Notes under the pieces: generated by a model | What the model saw: the letters and a program-made list of their open reading frames with translations, nothing else | What the model was told of the DNA's origin: nothing | Database searches by the model: none | Origin: Dehalococcoidia bacterium | Lineage (GTDB): Bacteria > Chloroflexota > Dehalococcoidia > Lucifugimonadales > UBA3495 | Length of the DNA stretch: 64,000 bases | NCBI GenBank assembly: GCA_965216155.1 | Contig: CBDCFD010000005.1 | Coordinates: 149,569-213,568 of the forward strand | Direction of reading: 5' to 3' | In this document: positions 18,853-28,007 of the stretch, piece after piece | How positions within the stretch are numbered: the stretch's first letter is position 1 | Layout: every line of letters starts with the position of its first letter | Position numbers and translations under genes: made by a program

Positions 18853-19473
18853 CTAGTGCATGGGAGAGAAGGAAGACGGCACCAGCATCTTGTTTTCCTG
18901 GCTGAGCAGGAATTCCCGGGTCGGCGGGGGCCAATGCTCGTTCTTGCTGGCCTCGGCGCGAATCTGGTTGCGCTCTTCCATATCCTTGTAGGGCCAGACG
19001 TGCATCCACTTGTTGAGGGACCCGAGGTCGCTGTGCATGGCGGCGGCGCAAGGTGAGTACTCCTCGCGGTGGGGGATGGCTTCGCCCCAGCGCTTGAGCA
19101 CTTCCGGCATCGAGCCGTTCTTGTACGTGTAGATGCGCATTTCGTAGATGTTCCCCAGCTCCTGTCCGCCGCCCATGGGCCGCATGAAGGGAGCGGGTAT
19201 GTAGATGTCGGAGGACAGGCTGACGTACATCTCGGGTGGGTTCTTGGGCGGCCAGTCCGGGTCCTTCGAGGCTTCGGCCCGGATGCTATTGCGCTCATCC
19301 ACGCTCTCGTAGGGCCAAACGTGGATCACCTGGTTCAGCGGACCGATGTCGGTGTGCCAGAAAGCGCCTAGCTTGGAGTATTTTTCCCTTGCGGGGAGGG
19401 CCTTGGCGAAGTTTTCCTCGAATTGGGCTACGGAGCCGGGTTGGAGAGTGTAGGTACGGACTTCGTATATCAC
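18853..19473 (-). CDS. NIPSNAP family protein (two NIPSNAP domains)
   Basis: YEVRTYTLQPGS and YEMRIYTYKNGS repeats. The likely start is GTG (complement of 19471-19473), 5 nt after GGAAGGAG. The ORF track extends the frame to 19581. Confidence 0.8.
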   Translation of the reverse strand: MIYEVRTYTLQPGSVAQFEENFAKALPAREKYSKLGAFWHTDIGPLNQVIHVWPYESVDERNSIRAEASKDPDWPPKNPPEMYVSLSSDIYIPAPFMRPMGGGQELGNIYEMRIYTYKNGSMPEVLKRWGEAIPHREEYSPCAAAMHSDLGSLNKWMHVWPYKDMEERNQIRAEASKNEHWPPPTREFLLSQENKMLVPSSFSPMH

Positions 19474-19714
19474 GGTCACTCCTTCCTCGTTAGTCTCTAT
19501 GGTTTTCTTGGCGCGGGTTGCTAAACGGCGGCCCAGCCGGGCCAACGGGGTCAGTGTAGCAAAATGCCCTTGGCCGGGCAATTGTCTGAACCGCGATTCA
19601 TTCAGACCCCCCTTTTCCGAAATGGGCTATGCGCGAGACGGCTGGAAACGTGATAATCAAAGGACCTTGCCAGGCGTATACTAACTGTAGGCGGTTGATC
19701 TGGCGGTTACTCTA

Positions 19715-20503
19715 ATGGAAGAGACACTTGCGGACATATCCCCCAGCTCTCCAGGATTGACCATCAGGCCCGGTCAATCGGTTTCCCGTGTGGGTCTCCG
19801 GAAAATACTGGACGTTTTTGCTCCCGGACCCGGCGGGGGCGCGTCATCGCTGTATCTCACGGCCGGAACCGGTCAGGACGGGTTGGCTACAGCCGGTCCC
19901 GCGGCGCCTGGTTGGATGGACGCCCTGCGTGGGTTGGACCGATCTGTCCTGGCGTCCGACACCGGGTTGGTGGGCCTGCGTTCAGGAAAGGAAGGGCTGG
20001 TCATCCTTCCTCCGTTCCCCCTATCGGAGGACCGGGCGATTGCCGGGTGGGACCCGGCTCCCTTGCTGGCCAATGTAGACGCCGACTACACGGTGGGCGT
20101 GGTGCTTTTAAGACTCGGCCGCTCTACCGTGGCTGTCTTTACCGGAGACCGTCTTATTTCCGCCAAGACCGACTCCCGTTACGTCAAGGGCAAGCACCAT
20201 GCCGGTGGCACGTCCCAACGCCGGTTCCAGCGCATACGGGAGGGCCAAGCCCGGAAAATGTACGACAAGACCTGCGATACCGTCCGCGCTCAGCTCGAGC
20301 CCCACGCCCGTGAACTCCAGTACCTTTTCCTTGGCGGCGATAGGATTACCTTGAACGAGTTCCAGAAGGTGTGCCCCCAAGTGGAACGGTTCCAGGGAAT
20401 AACGCTCCAACGCAGGCTTAACATACGTGACCCCAAACGTGATACGCTGGAAGAAGTGCCGGAGATAATCAGGGAATGCAGGTTGTATCCCGTCGGGTTT
20501 TGA
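19715..20503 (+). CDS. Vms1/ANKZF1-type (acVLRF1-like) peptidyl-tRNA hydrolase
   Basis: RYVKGKHHAGGTSQRRFQR matches the VLRF1 catalytic loop (yeast Vms1 RRKQGGSQS, GxxQ). The eRF1-like size fits and the gene is co-directional with mutS2. Confidence 0.7.
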   Translation: MEETLADISPSSPGLTIRPGQSVSRVGLRKILDVFAPGPGGGASSLYLTAGTGQDGLATAGPAAPGWMDALRGLDRSVLASDTGLVGLRSGKEGLVILPPFPLSEDRAIAGWDPAPLLANVDADYTVGVVLLRLGRSTVAVFTGDRLISAKTDSRYVKGKHHAGGTSQRRFQRIREGQARKMYDKTCDTVRAQLEPHARELQYLFLGGDRITLNEFQKVCPQVERFQGITLQRRLNIRDPKRDTLEEVPEIIRECRLYPVGF

Positions 20504-20553
20504 GAGCTTAGAAAGCCTACCGCATCTACCTCAGCAATAGACAAAGTCACACC

Positions 20554-22983
20554 ATGTCAACGGAACAAGACACACAGGGCCTTGTGAGTGACAGGCCCCT
20601 AAGCGCTGCGACTGAGCCCGGTGATTCCCGCGAGTCACCGGGCTTTACCCGTGCGGTCCGGCTTCTGGAATTTGACCAGATCCGCCAACGGTTGGCTTCG
20701 TATGCCCGGACGGTGTTGGGCGAAGACGCAGCCTTGGCGTTGAGTCCCAAGCAGGACCTTCTGGCCATTGCGACCGACCTTCAGGAGACCACCGAGGCCA
20801 AGCAGTTCACCGAAAACGGCGGCGCGCTGGAATTTGGCCCGCGTATAGATTTCCGGGACCCGGTCCACCGGGTGATTTTGGGCGGACTGCTGCGTGGTGA
20901 GGAACTGCGTTCGATCCAGGAACTTCTGCAGGCCGCACGGTTCGACCGGTCCCGCTTGGCAGACCGGGACGATTTTCCCCTGCTGGCAGGTTTCGCGGAA
21001 AACATCCCCGACCTTACCAGCATAGAGAGCGCAATCGCTTCCGCGATTAGCCCCGCCGGCGAGGTGCTGGATGATGCCAGCCCGGCGCTGCGCCAGCTTC
21101 GGCAAGAGTCACGGGCGGTCCACCAGAGACTAAACGAGACCATGGAGCGGAACCTGCGGCGTTTCCAACGGATGGAGGTGGTCCAGGAGCCGATCATCAC
21201 GCAGCGGAACGGCCGGTTGGTGCTCCTGATTAAGTCCGAAATGAAACCCCGTGTACCCGGCATCGTCCACGACGTTTCCGATAGCGGCTCTACGGTCTTC
21301 GTCGAGCCCATGGGCGCAATCGAGATGGGGAACCGCTGGCGGGAGGCGCGGTTGGCCGAGGAGCGGGAAGTTGAGCGGGTCCTGCGCCACCTTTCCAACC
21401 AGGTCAGCCATGTGGGCCAGGACCTCTTGCTCACTCTGGATATCCTGTCCCGGCTGGACCTGGATATGGCCAAGGGCCGCTATTCTTCCGCGTTGCGGGC
21501 CGTTTCCCCGTGGGTGTCAGACCAACCAACCGGAGAGCGCCGACTGAGCCTGACCGGAGCGCGTCACCCGCTGCTCTCTGGCCCTGTGGTGCCGGTGAGC
21601 CTGGACCTGGGCGGAGATACCAGGGTCATGTTGATAACCGGTCCCAACGCGGGTGGCAAGACGGTTGCCTTGAAGACGGTGGGCCTGCTGGCGTTGATGG
21701 CTCAATCCGGACTGCACGTTCCTGCCGATGAAGCCTCGCTCCCCCTCTTTGATGGCGTGTTCGTCGACATTGGCGACCAACAGAGCATAGAGCAGGCGTT
21801 GTCCACCTTCAGCTCCCACATCCAAAACCTGATCACGATCATGAATCAGACCACGGCCCAATCCCTGATTCTGGTGGACGAGCTTGGCACGAGCACTGAC
21901 CCTGAAGAAGGATCGGCACTGGCCCAGGCCATTCTGGGTTACTTCTTGCGGCTAGGGCCGCTGCTCGTGGCGACCACCCACCACCGTGGTGTGGCACGCT
22001 ACGTGCAGGAATCGACTGGAATGACCAACGCCAGCGTGGACCTCCACCCGCAGACGTTGCAGCCGACCTACCGCGTCACCCTGGGAGTGCCGGGACGCAG
22101 TTACGCCCTCACCATCGCGGCACGGCTGGGGATTCCTCAGGAGATCATCGAGCAAGCCCGTTCTGCCATATCCCCGGTCGAGCAGGCGACGGAAGACCTG
22201 TTGCATCAGCTTCAGGAGGAGCGCAGAGTCGTCGAGCAACTTCGCCAGGAAGCCGAAGAAGCGTTGACCCAGTCTCGTCAGCAGCAGGCCAACGTCGAGT
22301 CTCAGTTGGCCGACGTGGAGTCGAGGAAAGCCGAGTTGGTGGAAGATGCGCGGCAGGACCTCCAGAGCCGTATCGGGGAACTGTTGGACAAGCTCCGCCA
22401 CGCTGAACGTGTGTTAGACCAGCCGGACACAAGGCAGGTCATCCAGGAGCAACGAACGCAACTGCGGGAAGCGGCCCGGGAAGTGCGGGCGCCTCGTTGG
22501 CAACCCATTGAGGTGAAGCGGACGCCCTGGCAAGAACGTGTGGACAGCGGAGACCGGGTGTTCCTCCGGGGGATACCGCGTCCCGTGGAGGTTATCACGC
22601 CTCCCGACGAGGAAGGGCAGATAGAGGTGTTGCTGGGGACCATGCGGGCCAAGGTGCCTATGTACCAGCTCGAGCGGCCCGCCGCTGGGCACGAGGCTGC
22701 GGCCCAGGCCCGGGTCTTTTTCCATCGTCAAGCGCCCAAACAGTCCAATACCGAGATCGATCTGCGCGGTTGCAGGGTAGACGAGGCTATTGGACGGGTC
22801 GACGAGCTTCTGAACAACGCTTCGCTGGACGGCGTCGAGAACGTCAGGATTATTCACGGCAAGGGCACCGGCGCTCTCAGGCGCGCGATACGGGAGTACC
22901 TTGACCGGCATCCGCTGGCGTCGTCGGTATCCAGTGGGGATGGCAGCGGCGGCGAGGGCGTAACGGTGGTGGAACTGGGGTAG
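20554..22983 (+). CDS. mutS2: endonuclease MutS2 (MutS ATPase plus C-terminal Smr)
   Basis: 809 aa. Walker A TGPNAGGKTV, DELGTSTDP, and the Smr motif IDLRG...RIIHGKGTGALR. Confidence 0.92.
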   Translation: MSTEQDTQGLVSDRPLSAATEPGDSRESPGFTRAVRLLEFDQIRQRLASYARTVLGEDAALALSPKQDLLAIATDLQETTEAKQFTENGGALEFGPRIDFRDPVHRVILGGLLRGEELRSIQELLQAARFDRSRLADRDDFPLLAGFAENIPDLTSIESAIASAISPAGEVLDDASPALRQLRQESRAVHQRLNETMERNLRRFQRMEVVQEPIITQRNGRLVLLIKSEMKPRVPGIVHDVSDSGSTVFVEPMGAIEMGNRWREARLAEEREVERVLRHLSNQVSHVGQDLLLTLDILSRLDLDMAKGRYSSALRAVSPWVSDQPTGERRLSLTGARHPLLSGPVVPVSLDLGGDTRVMLITGPNAGGKTVALKTVGLLALMAQSGLHVPADEASLPLFDGVFVDIGDQQSIEQALSTFSSHIQNLITIMNQTTAQSLILVDELGTSTDPEEGSALAQAILGYFLRLGPLLVATTHHRGVARYVQESTGMTNASVDLHPQTLQPTYRVTLGVPGRSYALTIAARLGIPQEIIEQARSAISPVEQATEDLLHQLQEERRVVEQLRQEAEEALTQSRQQQANVESQLADVESRKAELVEDARQDLQSRIGELLDKLRHAERVLDQPDTRQVIQEQRTQLREAAREVRAPRWQPIEVKRTPWQERVDSGDRVFLRGIPRPVEVITPPDEEGQIEVLLGTMRAKVPMYQLERPAAGHEAAAQARVFFHRQAPKQSNTEIDLRGCRVDEAIGRVDELLNNASLDGVENVRIIHGKGTGALRRAIREYLDRHPLASSVSSGDGSGGEGVTVVELG

Positions 22984-23019
22984 TGGCTGTTGATTAGAAA
23001 CTAACTCGAAACTGGATTT

Positions 23020-23063
23020 CCCCGATGTCTCCCCCTCTTTGGCAAAAGGGGGAGACATCGGGG
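23020..23063. terminator. long GC-rich hairpin between convergent mutS2 and fic
   Basis: ccccgatgtctccccct...agggggagacatcgggg forms a ~17-bp stem. Confidence 0.6.
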
Positions 23064-23177
23064 CGTTGCATCAAATCTATGAATTTTGCAGGACTTATGA
23101 CATGAGCTCCTGCATTACGATATGAGCGTGAGATTTCTAAATGGGACGATTGCAACGTCTCTGATGTACCCAGGCAA

Positions 23178-24406
23178 TTAACTCCGGCGACCCAGCAGCC
23201 GTGACAACTCCGGCATCGCCGGATGATTTGCAGACACGGCCGACGGCATGTTTTCATACCATTCCAAAAGTTCTGACTGGGGAAACTGCTGCGGCCATTC
23301 CAAATTGACCCGGATATGATTGCCATCAAACACCACCGCGCGCAAGTTAAACAGTCCAATCAAGTCTCGTAACTGCGCCCGGTCCGGGTATTTCAGGCTT
23401 TGGTAGTGTGCCAAGGTACGCGCGAGGAAGTCACTCGGGTCTACGGAAGGGCTGTCCAGCAGAGTCTCCAGAATTTGCAACTGCCGTTCCGCCAGGACTC
23501 GCCGCCTTGGGCTACGGAGTTGCCCGAACAAAGACCGCGCGCATTCCCGGAACAGGACCCGTTTATGGTTGACCAGAATTTCCCCTGCAACAGCGTTGCA
23601 TCGCTCGGTCACCGCCGACAGCGCAAACCGGAGGAAAGGCGTGAGGTCGTGTCCACACTGGCGGGACTCGAACAGGGCGCCCAGGTACTCCTCTTTGTGG
23701 TTGTAGTAGTAATTGGACAGGCTGACCATGACCCGGTCGTTGACGCTGGCCTTCCTTAGCATAAAGGCTTCCACGGCCCGGCGGTACGGCCATTGCCGTG
23801 GCCAAAGGGGTGCATTGCACCGATATGGTAATGGATGGCCATGGCCTGAATAATACCGTCGTGCTCCCGGAACTCCCCTCCGATGGCGTTGCAGAGGGCA
23901 TCAAAAGCATCCCGGCAACCGTCTCCACCCTCCGCGCCCCGGCAACGTGGCGACCCGAAGGTGACATTGTGACCGTGCCCCCGGAGCGCTCCGGGCCCGC
24001 AGTGGTCGTCTTCACAACCGGTAACGATGCGCCGGTGGACTTCCAGCACGAACTTACGATTGACGGGACGGTCCGAAGGCTGGGAACCTATCCATTTGTA
24101 GGTCGCTTCGGCAGCCCGTAACTGCCGCTGTGAGTAGGTCAAATCGGTACGGTTCTCAGCGTCGGGAGCCAAGGCTTCGTTCTCTTCTTGAGGGGTGAAC
24201 TCGGCCCCTTCAATGCGGGAAGTGCCGGCGGTCTCCAGCCGCAGTTGCTCTTGGTGCACCGTTTCAATCCACTGGGGCAGATAGGGAAGTTGGCGCAGCA
24301 CTCCCGCCGCGGTTTTAGCTTCTACCAACTGTTCCAGGATGGCAGCTTTATCGTAGTGGATCCACCGTTGGGGGGGCGCATAACGGCTGATGTTTGCCGT
24401 GGTCAT
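23178..24406 (-). pseudogene. Fic family protein, split by a 1-nt frameshift inside the Fic motif
   Basis: ORF 23756..24406 ends HPFGHGNGRTAGPWKPLC*. Shifting one base at about 23775 restores GNGRTARAVEAFML, which continues as ORF 23178..23774. Confidence 0.7.
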
Positions 24407-24538: not shown

Positions 24539-25342
24539 TTACCGGCCCTGGAACCAGGGGCGGCGCTTTTCTGCGAAGGCGCGGATACCGTCTTGAAAGT
24601 CTCCGGTTAGACCGATTCCCTGCATGGCGGTGGTTTCGGCGTCCAGTTGTTCTTCCAGGCTGGACTCCCACGCGCGGTCGAAGAGGGCCTTGACCCGTCC
24701 GTAGGCCACAGTGGGACCCTGGGCCAACCTCATGGCGGTCTCCAGTACGTGTCTGTCCAGGTCACCGGAAGGGCAGACCTGGCTGACCAGCCCGATTTCC
24801 AGAGCCCCGTCGGCGCTGAGGGGCTGGCTGGCCAAATAAAGCTCCATTGCCTTTCCGGCGCCGATCAACCGGGGCAACATGTAGGTAGAGCCGCCGTCGG
24901 CAGTTGCCCCGATGTTGGCGTAGGCCATCAGGAACCGCGCGGTGCTGGATGCGATGCGCAGGTCGCAGGCCAGCATCAGGCTGAACCCTCCCCCCGCCGC
25001 CACTCCGTCGATGCCGGCGATTACCGGCTTTTGCAGTCGGCGAATCTCCAGTACGACGTCACGGTGCAGCGCCCCGGCCAGGTTGTTGAGGTGTTGGGAG
25101 ATTTCTTCCGGGCCCCCATTTTCCAAGTGGTCCACGAAGTCCTTAACGTCTGCGCCGGAGCAGAAAGATCCCCCGGCCCCGCTGAGGACGACCGCGCGGA
25201 TATTCGGCCCGCGGCAGGACCGTAGGGCCTCGCCCAACTGGTCTACCATTTCGGGAGACAGGGCGTTGCGCGCCTCGGGACGGTTGAGCGTAACCTTGGC
25301 TACGCTGCCCTGGATGGTGAACTCTATTCGGTTGGACGCCAT
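24539..25342 (-). CDS. enoyl-CoA hydratase/isomerase (crotonase) family protein
   Basis: VTLNRPEARNAL and GAGGSFCSGADV motifs. Confidence 0.9.
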   Translation of the reverse strand: MASNRIEFTIQGSVAKVTLNRPEARNALSPEMVDQLGEALRSCRGPNIRAVVLSGAGGSFCSGADVKDFVDHLENGGPEEISQHLNNLAGALHRDVVLEIRRLQKPVIAGIDGVAAGGGFSLMLACDLRIASSTARFLMAYANIGATADGGSTYMLPRLIGAGKAMELYLASQPLSADGALEIGLVSQVCPSGDLDRHVLETAMRLAQGPTVAYGRVKALFDRAWESSLEEQLDAETTAMQGIGLTGDFQDGIRAFAEKRRPWFQGR

Positions 25343-25395
25343 TCTGCACCTCGATTGTTGGGGGATTGTTCGGCGGTTTGACTGTCCTGGCCGGC

Positions 25396-25752
25396 CTACT
25401 CCAGCAATGGCTCCAGCTTTTCCAGCAATTGTCGCACGTCGCGCAGCCCCGCCTCAATCATATTCGCGCTTTGCAGGTCTTCATAGAAGTTGACGTGCAA
25501 GCTGTTGGCGGTGTGGTAGAGGCTGAACAATTGGGAGTCCCCGGTTTCCGCCACCAGCGAGTCAATGACCCCGCTCAAGGATGGGTGTCTATTGTGCCGC
25601 CAACCCCTTTGTTCTGCGATTGCCTTAATCATCTGCGCCGCCGCCCCCCAACCCTTTTCCGAGGCTTGCCGCAGGTCACCATCGGCCAATTCCTCGAAGG
25701 CTTTGACGATGAGCTGTTTGCTTGCTTGGGCGTATACGATGTCCCTGTTCAT
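25396..25752 (-). CDS. PaREP1/HEPN-like helical protein, copy 1
   Basis: 118 aa. ASEKGWGAAAQMIKAIAEQRGWRHNRH...ANSLHVNFYE contains an Rx4-6H-type motif (RGWxHNxH). Paralogous to 27618..28007. Confidence 0.65.
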   Translation of the reverse strand: MNRDIVYAQASKQLIVKAFEELADGDLRQASEKGWGAAAQMIKAIAEQRGWRHNRHPSLSGVIDSLVAETGDSQLFSLYHTANSLHVNFYEDLQSANMIEAGLRDVRQLLEKLEPLLE

Positions 25753-25808
25753 ATTTTATCCTTACCGCTCCGAAGGTACGCGGCTGGGGACATTAAGCCC
25801 CAGTCGTC

Positions 25809-26024
25809 CTATTCCAGCAACGGCTCCAGCTTTTCCAGCAGCAGTTGGACGTCCTGGAAACCCGCTTCGACGACTTCGGGAGGGTCCCAATTCTCATAGA
25901 AATTGCTATGGAGGCTGTTGGCCACATGAAATAGGGTGATTAACTGAGTGCAGCCCTTCGGGCGGTTCAAGGTGACCTTGGCCACGCTGCCCTGGTTAGT
26001 GAACTCGATTCTATCTGATGGCAT
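25809..26024 (-). pseudogene. chimeric remnant: crotonase codons 1-22 fused to the C-terminal ~45 aa of a PaREP1/HEPN-like gene
   Basis: MPSDRIEFTNQGSVAKVTLNRP matches MASNRIEFTIQGSVAKVTLNRP of 24539..25342 at 19/22 residues. It is followed by GCTQLITLFHVANSLHSNFYENW...LEKLEPLLE. Confidence 0.6.
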
Positions 26025-26049
26025 CCTGCACCTCGTCGGTCTGCCGGGG

Positions 26050-27617: not shown

Positions 27618-28007
27618 CTACGTCTCTGGTGTGACTGGACCCGGGGCATACTGCCCCAACATTGGTTCCAGCTTGTCCAGAAATAGACCAACGTCGTGCA
27701 GGGCTAGCTCTACCAACTCCGGGGGCAACCAGTTCTCGTAGAAGTTTGTATGCAGGTTTCCAGCGACTTGGAATAGATTGGCTACCTGGGTATCGCCGGT
27801 CTCTTGGACCAGCGTCCTCACGATTCCGTAAAATAGACGGTGACTATTGTGTGACCAGCCCCTGCGTTCTGCCACGGCCTTGAGCATTTGCGCGGCCGCT
27901 CCCCAACCCTTCTCCGAGGCTTGCACCACGTCTCCCTGTGCCAGTTCCTGAAACGCTTTGGTCAAGAACTCTCTGCTGGCAATGGCGTATCCATCGCGTT
28001 GATTCAT
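27618..28007 (-). CDS. PaREP1/HEPN-like helical protein, copy 2
   Basis: 129 aa. ASEKGWGAAAQMLKAVAERRGWSHNSH...AGNLHTNFYENW. A GGGAGGAG RBS sits 12 nt after the tldD stop. Its own stop is 5 nt before the pmbA ATG. Confidence 0.65.
   Translation of the reverse strand: MNQRDGYAIASREFLTKAFQELAQGDVVQASEKGWGAAAQMLKAVAERRGWSHNSHRLFYGIVRTLVQETGDTQVANLFQVAGNLHTNFYENWLPPELVELALHDVGLFLDKLEPMLGQYAPGPVTPET

Follow-up and report, generated by a model that had tools for sequence, protein, structure and literature searches.

Systems that release nascent chains from, or split, stalled ribosomes have been described in eukaryotes, archaea and bacteria, and those closest to the locus reported here are Vms1/ANKZF1, ribosome-associated quality control (RQC) in Bacillus subtilis, the Pelota(Dom34)–ABCE1 and aRF1–ABCE1 pairs, and ArfB/ICT1. 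The locus is a pair of adjacent genes, encoding an acVLRF1-family protein and MutS2, in a stretch of 64,000 nt from a Dehalococcoidia bacterium (assembly GCA_965216155.1, contig CBDCFD010000005.1, positions 149,569 to 213,568, forward strand), hereafter the window, to which all coordinates refer. The pairing is conserved, irrespective of gene order, across two distant Dehalococcoidia clades, and the two proteins probably form an unreported two-gene system for the rescue of stalled ribosomes.

Yeast Vms1 and human ANKZF1 (eVLRF-1) belong with acVLRF1 to the VLRF-1 clade within the aeRF1 superfamily (Pfam model; Burroughs & Aravind 2019), and they share with it a loop of small residues ending in glutamine, followed by an Arg-rich helix, as well as a structural match (6r84_R). 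The proposed job is likewise the same, namely release of the chain from the large subunit after the action of a collision-triggered splitting ATPase. However, the sequence and fold of acVLRF1 are nearer to archaeal aRF1, its partner is MutS2 instead of the RQT/Cdc48/Ltn1 machinery, and a sister acVLRF1 clade is devoid of the loop glutamine. It further lacks the treble-clef domain, and a Pfam scan of the protein gave no Rei1-type zinc finger, ankyrin repeats or VIM motif. As these elements are absent and the loop reads GGTSQ rather than GGSQ, the protein is not a Vms1 orthologue, although by analogy it may work like Vms1.

In B. subtilis RQC, the action of MutS2/RqcU is followed by Ala-tailing through RqcH and RqcP/YlmH and by release through Pth. 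The MutS2 of the window has the same architecture, including the Walker motifs and the DLR/HGxG Smr domain, and presumably the same collision-sensing and splitting role, but the tailed chain is released there by the housekeeping Pth, whereas in the window the gene of a release-factor homologue is linked to that of MutS2. The Pelota(Dom34)–ABCE1 and aRF1–ABCE1 pairs also combine an aeRF1-superfamily protein with a subunit-separating ABC-type ATPase, and among solved structures aRF1 is the one most closely related to acVLRF1. They differ in that MutS2 is a MutS-clade ABC ATPase with an architecture unrelated to ABCE1, in that acVLRF1 is devoid of the C-terminal domain that contacts ABCE1 or a GTPase, and in that the locus lacks a gene for a partner GTPase. 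ArfB (YaeJ)/ICT1, finally, is a small standalone protein with a Gly-Gly loop, for which, as for acVLRF1, delivery to the peptidyl-transferase centre without stop-codon reading is predicted. Its bacterial RF-PH fold nonetheless contrasts with the RNase H-fold aeRF1 domain, and ArfB senses the empty mRNA channel of the 70S ribosome through a C-terminal tail that acVLRF1 does not have.

For bacterial RQC, no dedicated release factor besides Pth is known (PMC11317155). Bacterial VLRF-1 proteins were called standalone in the study that predicted them, which never mentions MutS or Smr (Burroughs & Aravind 2019, PMC6514570), and the MutS2 paper of Park et al. (2023), which has authors in common with that group, mentions no gene neighbourhood or operon. 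The searchable literature holds no functionally characterised member of the acVLRF1 family and nothing on its pairing with MutS2, in line with the view of an earlier annotation, made by a model from the sequence letters alone (the first-pass annotation), that the pairing was unreported. Both gene families are thus known; new are the conserved, order-independent pairing and a subfamily without the loop glutamine.

The two genes and their products

The elements of the pair are located in the window as follows:

19715..20503, plus strand: acVLRF1-family gene, 262 aa (open reading frame (ORF) list, Pfam, NCBIfam, AlphaFold2 (AF2), Foldseek, PDB profile search)
~residues 20–122 of acVLRF1, plus strand: N-terminal alpha/beta domain (AF2 model)
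residues 126–262 of acVLRF1, plus strand: aeRF1 M-type (RNase H-fold) domain (AF2 model, Foldseek)
20204..20218, plus strand: GGxSQ loop G164-G165-T166-S167-Q168, presumed catalytic, followed by the start of the Arg-rich helix (R169, R170, R173, R175)
20504..20553, plus strand: spacer, 50 nt, without terminator-like site, excess folding or Rfam match
20554..22983, plus strand: MutS2 gene, 809 aa (TIGR01069; Pfam MutS_V and Smr, without MutS_I/II)
21640..21663, plus strand: Walker A GPNAGGKT, MutS2 residues 363–370 (motif scan)
from MutS2 residue 441, plus strand: Walker B LILVDELG (motif scan)
22549..22662, plus strand: putative MSSS/KOW-like SH3 domain, MutS2 residues 666–703 (PF20297, 23.9 bits, below the 26.8 cutoff)
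22756..22977, plus strand: Smr domain, MutS2 residues 735–808 (Pfam Smr; motifs IDLRG and IHGKGTG)

The first-pass annotation had reported a 262-aa ORF containing DSRYVKGKHHAGGTSQRRFQRIREGQ, which is present in the ORF list at 19715..20503 on the plus strand, and had assigned it to acVLRF1. The assignment is upheld by a match to the Pfam acVLRF1 model PF18859 far above its cutoff (95.9 versus 27.1 bits), with lower scores for the sister models baeRF_family10 (54.4 bits) and eRF1_2 (42.2 bits), by the GGxSQ loop and by a fold of the aRF1/eRF1/Vms1 type. The ORF encodes an acVLRF1-family member, a small bacterial relative of Vms1/eRF1 release factors. The NCBIfam model NF041024 (acVLRF1_NCBI) aligned over profile positions 48–203 of 208 and scored 121.5 bits against a cutoff of 125; since members of three other Chloroflexi clades scored 84–123 bits, this cutoff seems too strict for all Chloroflexi clades tested. 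When 1.84 billion cluster representatives were searched with a profile, 156 clusters (50%-identity representatives) fell into the family at E<=1e-30.

An AF2 model computed from a 147-sequence alignment reached a pLDDT of 91.9 and a pTM of 0.87, and comparison with the PDB by Foldseek gave archaeal aRF1 (E 1e-10) and many eRF1 structures (~1e-8), as well as the bacterial hibernation factor Balon and Dom34/Pelota. The eRF1 M domain alone was matched (2hst, 4crm), and superposition on the aRF1 8hku gave an rmsd of 2.9 over 125 columns. The match to yeast Vms1 on the 60S subunit (6r84_R) had an E of 8e-4 and a TMq of 0.43 over 190 columns. Similarly, the nearest solved relatives in the PDB profile search were archaeal aRF1 proteins (E 4e-18). 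The first-pass annotation had likened the loop to that of Vms1/ANKZF1; its closest match in sequence is archaeal aRF1 and not Vms1.

Catalytic domains of the aeRF1 type adopt an RNase H fold, and the motif of acVLRF-1 and aVLRF-1 has been given as GGxSQ, with its final Gln treated as catalytic (Burroughs & Aravind 2019, PMC6514570), a role that we consider putative for the window protein. In the aRF1 alignment, GGQSQRRYER pairs with GGsSQrRFeR of acVLRF1, so that the canonical GGQ glutamine position is occupied by Thr166 and the retained Gln168 lies three residues past the two glycines, where it corresponds to the second Gln of aRF1 in the profile alignment. In eukaryotic eRF1 (GGQSA), the place of this second Gln is taken by Ala. 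In the alignment of 147 acVLRF1 sequences, which spans three clades, the invariant residues comprise G84, P99 (of a PPFP motif), R133, G164, G165, S167, R170, R173 and R175, together with C187, G207, G208, C220 and P240, whereas Q168 varies. Two of these residues, C187 (20273–20275) and C220 (20372–20374), are cysteines conserved without exception in all three clades.

The C-terminal domain of eRF1 and Pelota is missing, as the Pfam scan gave no eRF1_3 match and the protein spans just 262 aa. [quoted passage not shown] In the window protein, the N-terminal ~100 residues (19715–20090, residues 1–125) adopt a confidently predicted alpha/beta fold, and in the PDB profile search the alignment with aRF1 reaches into its N (stop-codon) domain (3agk, residues 7–109). 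Instead of a novel extension, this part may accordingly represent an aRF1 N domain in reduced form.

The MutS2 gene starts exactly 50 nt downstream of acVLRF1, which lies upstream on the same plus strand. As the first-pass annotation had it, this is an 809-aa, co-directional MutS2 with a C-terminal Smr domain: residues 33–808 matched positions 3–790 of the 790 of NCBIfam TIGR01069 with 778.9 bits (cutoff 400), and Pfam gave 126 bits for MutS_V and 78.8 bits for Smr. The mismatch-recognition (MutS_I) and connector (MutS_II) domains gave no match in the Pfam scan. The protein is a full-length MutS2 with intact Walker A and B motifs and a DLR/HGxG Smr domain of the B. subtilis type. Such Smr domains characterise the MutS2 of B. 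subtilis, which binds collided disomes via its KOW and Smr domains and splits the ribosomes by ATP hydrolysis without mRNA cleavage (Park et al. 2023, PMC10897456). The KOW domain of the B. subtilis protein binds uS10; the corresponding PF20297 model is matched weakly both by the window protein and by the MutS2 of a second locus (L171). Among the MutS2 ORFs adjoining acVLRF1, the Walker A sequence GPNAGGKT was found in 66/66 of those scanned in the window's clade (clade A), and the Smr DLR motif in 64/66 there and in 18/19 of clade B, the second clade.

Conservation of the pairing

When each GTDB species was scanned through a single genome, 268 genomes proved to encode a relative, and the best 80 of these were analysed. 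All 80 are Dehalococcoidia, SAR202 or Chloroflexota metagenome-assembled genomes (MAGs), and their acVLRF1 proteins are 46–74% identical to that of the window. Neighbours were identified by tblastn with the window MutS2, and the 79 loci with room downstream of acVLRF1 were considered evaluable. In 76 of these 79 species genomes, MutS2 lay downstream of acVLRF1 and in the same orientation, with a gap of at most 265 nt in 70 of the 76. In the larger-gap loci that were examined, extra genes had been inserted between acVLRF1 and MutS2, with order and orientation kept. When other window genes were used as queries, NIPSNAP was found at 49, SnoaL at 47 and VIT1 at 42 of the 80 loci, and the multi-copy crotonase family at 64. 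All-against-all clustering of the ORFs within 4 kb gave 75/80 loci with MutS2, against 41/80 for the second most frequent family. Background synteny exists in this clade, yet the acVLRF1–MutS2 pair stands well above it.

Judged by sequence appearance, several of the inserts (loci L024, L062, L072 and L080) may be transposase-like; some resemble small IS200/RayT-type genes and one a 463-aa transposase on the reverse strand. Tandem acVLRF1 paralogues were also suggested at one stage by a clustering artefact; a BLAST check revealed that they do not exist.

In a distant clade, here called Dehalococcoidales-type after the naming in NCBI records, acVLRF1 is ~30% identical to the window protein and the order is reversed, with MutS2 preceding acVLRF1 and the two genes often abutting or overlapping (the called genes of L085/L086 overlap by 4 nt). 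A metagenome scan seeded with this clade provided 80 loci, not dereplicated, 66 of them evaluable by virtue of at least 600 nt upstream of acVLRF1. MutS2 was located upstream on the same strand in 56 of the 66, and the gap was at most 160 nt in 49 of the 56. The same arrangement, with a 55-nt gap, was present on a 1.47-Mb MAG contig of the clade. The next commonest neighbour family occurred in only 24 of the 80 loci, and the top neighbours differ from those of the window's clade. Adjacency beyond this genome, on which the first-pass annotation had made its proposal depend, is therefore found in the same order in one clade and in reverse order in another.

Loop variants were counted by clade. 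In the window's clade, GGTSQ was counted 97 times, GGSSQ 17, GGSSA five times and GGTSE once, and in clade b, a further Chloroflexota clade, the counts were 89 for GGSSQ, 20 for GGQSQ and six for GGTSQ. The 115 Dehalococcoidales-type sequences comprise 97 GGSSA, 16 GGSSS and two GGSSQ loops, so the clade most tightly coupled to MutS2 is mostly without a loop glutamine, while the two glycines, the Ser and the Arg-rich helix are still invariant. In its GGSSA/GGSSS members (loci L085–L166 and L171; proteins P0214 and P0393–P0507), neither of the loop positions at which a glutamine could be expected is occupied by one.

Proposed ribosome rescue and competing explanations

The adjacency is kept across two distant Dehalococcoidia lineages with opposite gene orders, which makes a two-gene rescue system probable. 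That adjacency and co-orientation persist despite the reversed order and the different neighbours is the strongest argument for selection beyond inheritance. It is likely, in our estimate, that acVLRF1 and MutS2 share a pathway. For the specific reading that they make up a split-and-release module, in which MutS2 would split collided ribosomes and acVLRF1 would then act on the 50S subunit in the manner of Vms1, we estimate a probability of roughly 0.5. MutS2 would recognise the collided disome and split the leading ribosome in an ATP-driven manner, which would leave a 50S subunit still carrying peptidyl-tRNA. Subsequently, acVLRF1 would enter the vacated A-site side of this subunit, reach the peptidyl-transferase centre with its GGTSQ loop and free the nascent chain, either by hydrolysis of the ester bond, like eRF1, or by a cut at the tRNA 3'-end, like Vms1/ANKZF1, so that the 50S subunit and the tRNA could be recycled. 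The analysis establishes the family and fold of the two proteins, the conserved loop with its Arg-rich helix and the co-directional adjacency in either gene order. Disome binding and splitting by the window MutS2 are presumed from the work on B. subtilis, and we infer that the genes are co-transcribed, that the ribosome is bound, that release comes after splitting and by which chemistry it proceeds.

Several findings weigh against the split-and-release module. MutS2 was missing within 10 kb of acVLRF1 in 3/79 genomes of the window's clade and was not found in 10/66 loci of the reverse-order clade. No acVLRF1–MutS2 fusion was present among the best 150 cluster representatives, whose lengths range from 146 to 345 aa. 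All the linked loci belong to one class, Dehalococcoidia, and shared ancestry thus contributes to the counts. Two other clades had no MutS2 within 5–6 kb: in clade b (loop GGSSQ, helix RSRERLIR; L082, L167/168, L169 and L170), four genomes have acVLRF1 on its own, flanked by rpiB and a short-chain dehydrogenase (SDR) gene, and in clade d (loop GGQSQ; L083/84 and L174, contigs from two distinct organisms), it comes directly after an MR_MLE enolase-superfamily gene, and a gene for a class IV aminotransferase is present further downstream. One contig of clade c was too short for an informative context. Actinobacteria also host acVLRF-1 (Burroughs & Aravind 2019, PMC6514570), and a survey of 15,259 genomes found mutS2 in 0/3213 and rqcH in 0/3213 Actinobacteriota, so acVLRF1 must work there without MutS2. 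The adjacency, which the first-pass annotation had proposed to test across Chloroflexota and Actinomycetota, accordingly holds for the two Dehalococcoidia clades, but not for clades b and d or for the Actinobacteria, which are devoid of MutS2.

The loop itself supplies two further objections, as the canonical GGQ glutamine is missing from the window acVLRF1 in the aRF1 alignment and the GGSSA/GGSSS loops of the reverse-order clade speak against a hydrolase that depends strictly on Gln. The side chain of the GGQ glutamine makes a modest contribution to hydrolysis in bacterial release factors, and the glycines and the backbone are critical. For Vms1/ANKZF1, in turn, hydrolase activity and nuclease activity on the tRNA 3'-end have both been reported. 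Given this modest contribution and these two chemistries, a loop without glutamine is no proof of inactivity, and Gln-independent chemistry and a Dom34-like, non-catalytic role are both open alternatives.

The latter would suit the main rival reading of the shared pathway, which we consider rather unlikely, whereby the target of acVLRF1 would be the leading ribosome while it is still an intact 70S, ahead of or in the course of splitting. There it could serve as an A-site release factor that needs no codon, comparable to ArfB or to an aRF1 minus its codon reading, or as a non-catalytic A-site wedge of the Dom34/Pelota type that aids the MutS2 ATPase, as Pelota does with ABCE1. Consistent with action on 70S, the aRF1/eRF1 matches (E 4e-18 and 1e-10) are stronger than the weak Vms1 match (E 8e-4) and extend into the aRF1 N domain, and the structural matches include Balon and Dom34/Pelota, which bind whole ribosomes. 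The eRF1 family, moreover, has catalytic as well as inactive, subunit-separating members (Park et al. 2023), and the MutS2-linked Dehalococcoidales-type clade without the loop glutamine is what a Dom34-like partner would predict. Yet the domain by which eRF1 and Pelota engage the GTPase and ABCE1 is the very one that acVLRF1 lacks, and the invariance of the GG, Ser and Arg residues even in the Gln-less members points to a constrained rather than a decayed active-site loop. Furthermore, disome splitting by B. subtilis MutS2 proceeds in vitro in the absence of any such partner (PMC10897456).

The pair could also reflect inherited synteny without a common function, with acVLRF1 as a standalone specialised release factor that happens to be encoded beside a housekeeping mutS2. 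The origin of all linked loci from one class, the moderate conservation of other neighbours in the window's clade (41–49 of 80 loci), the unlinked acVLRF1 clades and the description of bacterial VLRF-1 as standalone (PMC6514570) are in keeping with this. We nevertheless judge it improbable, since MutS2 far exceeds every other neighbour in conservation in the two clades, shares the orientation of acVLRF1 throughout and usually lies within ~150 nt, since the adjacency survives order reversal at ~30% acVLRF1 identity while the other top neighbours differ, and since order and orientation are kept despite insertions in the loci examined. Far less probable still is a non-ribosomal role on nucleic acids, with MutS2 as a recombination-suppressing DNA nuclease/ATPase and acVLRF1 as its RNase H-fold accessory nuclease. 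This explanation draws on the RNase H fold of the aeRF1 catalytic domain (PMC6514570) and on the first characterisation of MutS2, in Thermus and Helicobacter, as a protein that binds DNA and counteracts recombination. It is countered by the DLR motif of the Smr domain, which stands where nucleases have DxH and lacks the His required for nuclease activity, and by the fact that no aeRF1-superfamily member in PMC6514570 or among the fold-search matches acts on DNA. In addition, the GG loop and Arg-rich helix are the elements by which release factors contact rRNA and the peptidyl-transferase centre, and there was no defence-system match in PADLOC. An anti-phage defence system had been considered separately and was discarded, as PADLOC gave no match for acVLRF1 and a negligible one for MutS2.

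Surrounding features and significance

The flanks of the pair contain the following features:

18853–19581, minus strand: NIPSNAP gene (Pfam NIPSNAP match)
19582..19714, plus strand: presumed promoter region of the pair, intergenic between the divergent NIPSNAP gene and acVLRF1
23020..23063, strand unassigned: perfect 17-bp GC-rich hairpin, 37 nt past the MutS2 stop codon, between convergent genes

A consensus scan gave no sigma-70-like promoter, including in 19582..19714, and the promoter of the pair is therefore presumed from position. A terminator-like site was not found in the 50-nt spacer, and the scan matches elsewhere did not exceed shuffled expectation. The spacer RNA folded no better than shuffles (z = +0.57), and Rfam returned no credible regulatory RNA or leader at the locus and nothing for the spacer, its weak, palindromic matches on both strands being confined to the hairpin 3' of MutS2. 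The RNA of 22975–23090 folds at -48 kcal/mol (z = -4.98), equalled by 0/200 shuffles. The hairpin has no T-tract and is a putative terminator, the likely end of the unit. An unstructured 50-nt spacer without terminator and a strong hairpin after MutS2 are compatible with a single transcript, and on these grounds acVLRF1 and MutS2 are likely co-transcribed.

Downstream of the hairpin, a Fic/DOC-family gene (23178–24406, minus strand) seems to be split into two overlapping ORFs (23756–24406 and 23178–23774), which may reflect a frameshift or a pseudogene. Homologues were found in just 2/80 related loci, so the gene seems to be an insertion that separates MutS2 from the crotonase gene. As a local partial duplication, the start of that crotonase gene at its 5' end (25273–25353) recurs at 25955–26035 with 78% identity, and a 64-nt repeat is common to the 3' ends of two PaREP1-family genes (25396–25752; 27618–28007, minus strand) and to 25805–25868. 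These crotonase and PaREP1 duplications (25273–26035 and 27647–27710) account for a small chimeric ORF at 25809–26024 on the minus strand.

No RqcH (NFACT) match was obtained among the roughly two dozen window ORFs scanned, which included most of those above 430 aa. Across the phylum, one survey gives RqcH in ~26% of 1306 Chloroflexota genomes, hence ~74% without, and a separate survey found mutS2 in 35/41 and rqcH in 26/41 Chloroflexota, so MutS2 without RqcH does exist in this phylum. The searchable literature contains no mention of RqcH and Dehalococcoidia together. A tentative and rather doubtful extension of the split-and-release module is that the two-gene cassette constitutes a minimal, RqcH-independent branch of RQC, in which MutS2 would split the ribosome and a VLRF1-type factor would release the untagged chain from the 50S subunit, as a bacterial counterpart, and possibly a forerunner, of the eukaryotic Vms1 step.

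How bacterial RQC ends is understood less well than any other step of the pathway, and bacterial VLRF1 homologues have hitherto been computational predictions lacking a known context, to which the link with MutS2 gives a concrete and testable role. The link further suggests where the action of MutS2 leads in those many lineages in which it occurs without RqcH. The pair is also a simple two-protein system for resolving the hydrolase-versus-nuclease question contested for Vms1/ANKZF1. If the RqcH-independent branch were real, the GGSSA version of the Dehalococcoidales-type clade would mean that VLRF1-type release can proceed without a glutamine side chain, through backbone-mediated hydrolysis or tRNA 3'-end cleavage. 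By extension, bVLRF-1 of Bacteroidota may have the same role, since MutS2 is far commoner than RqcH in the FCB group (1781/1956 versus 404/1956 genomes in a survey).

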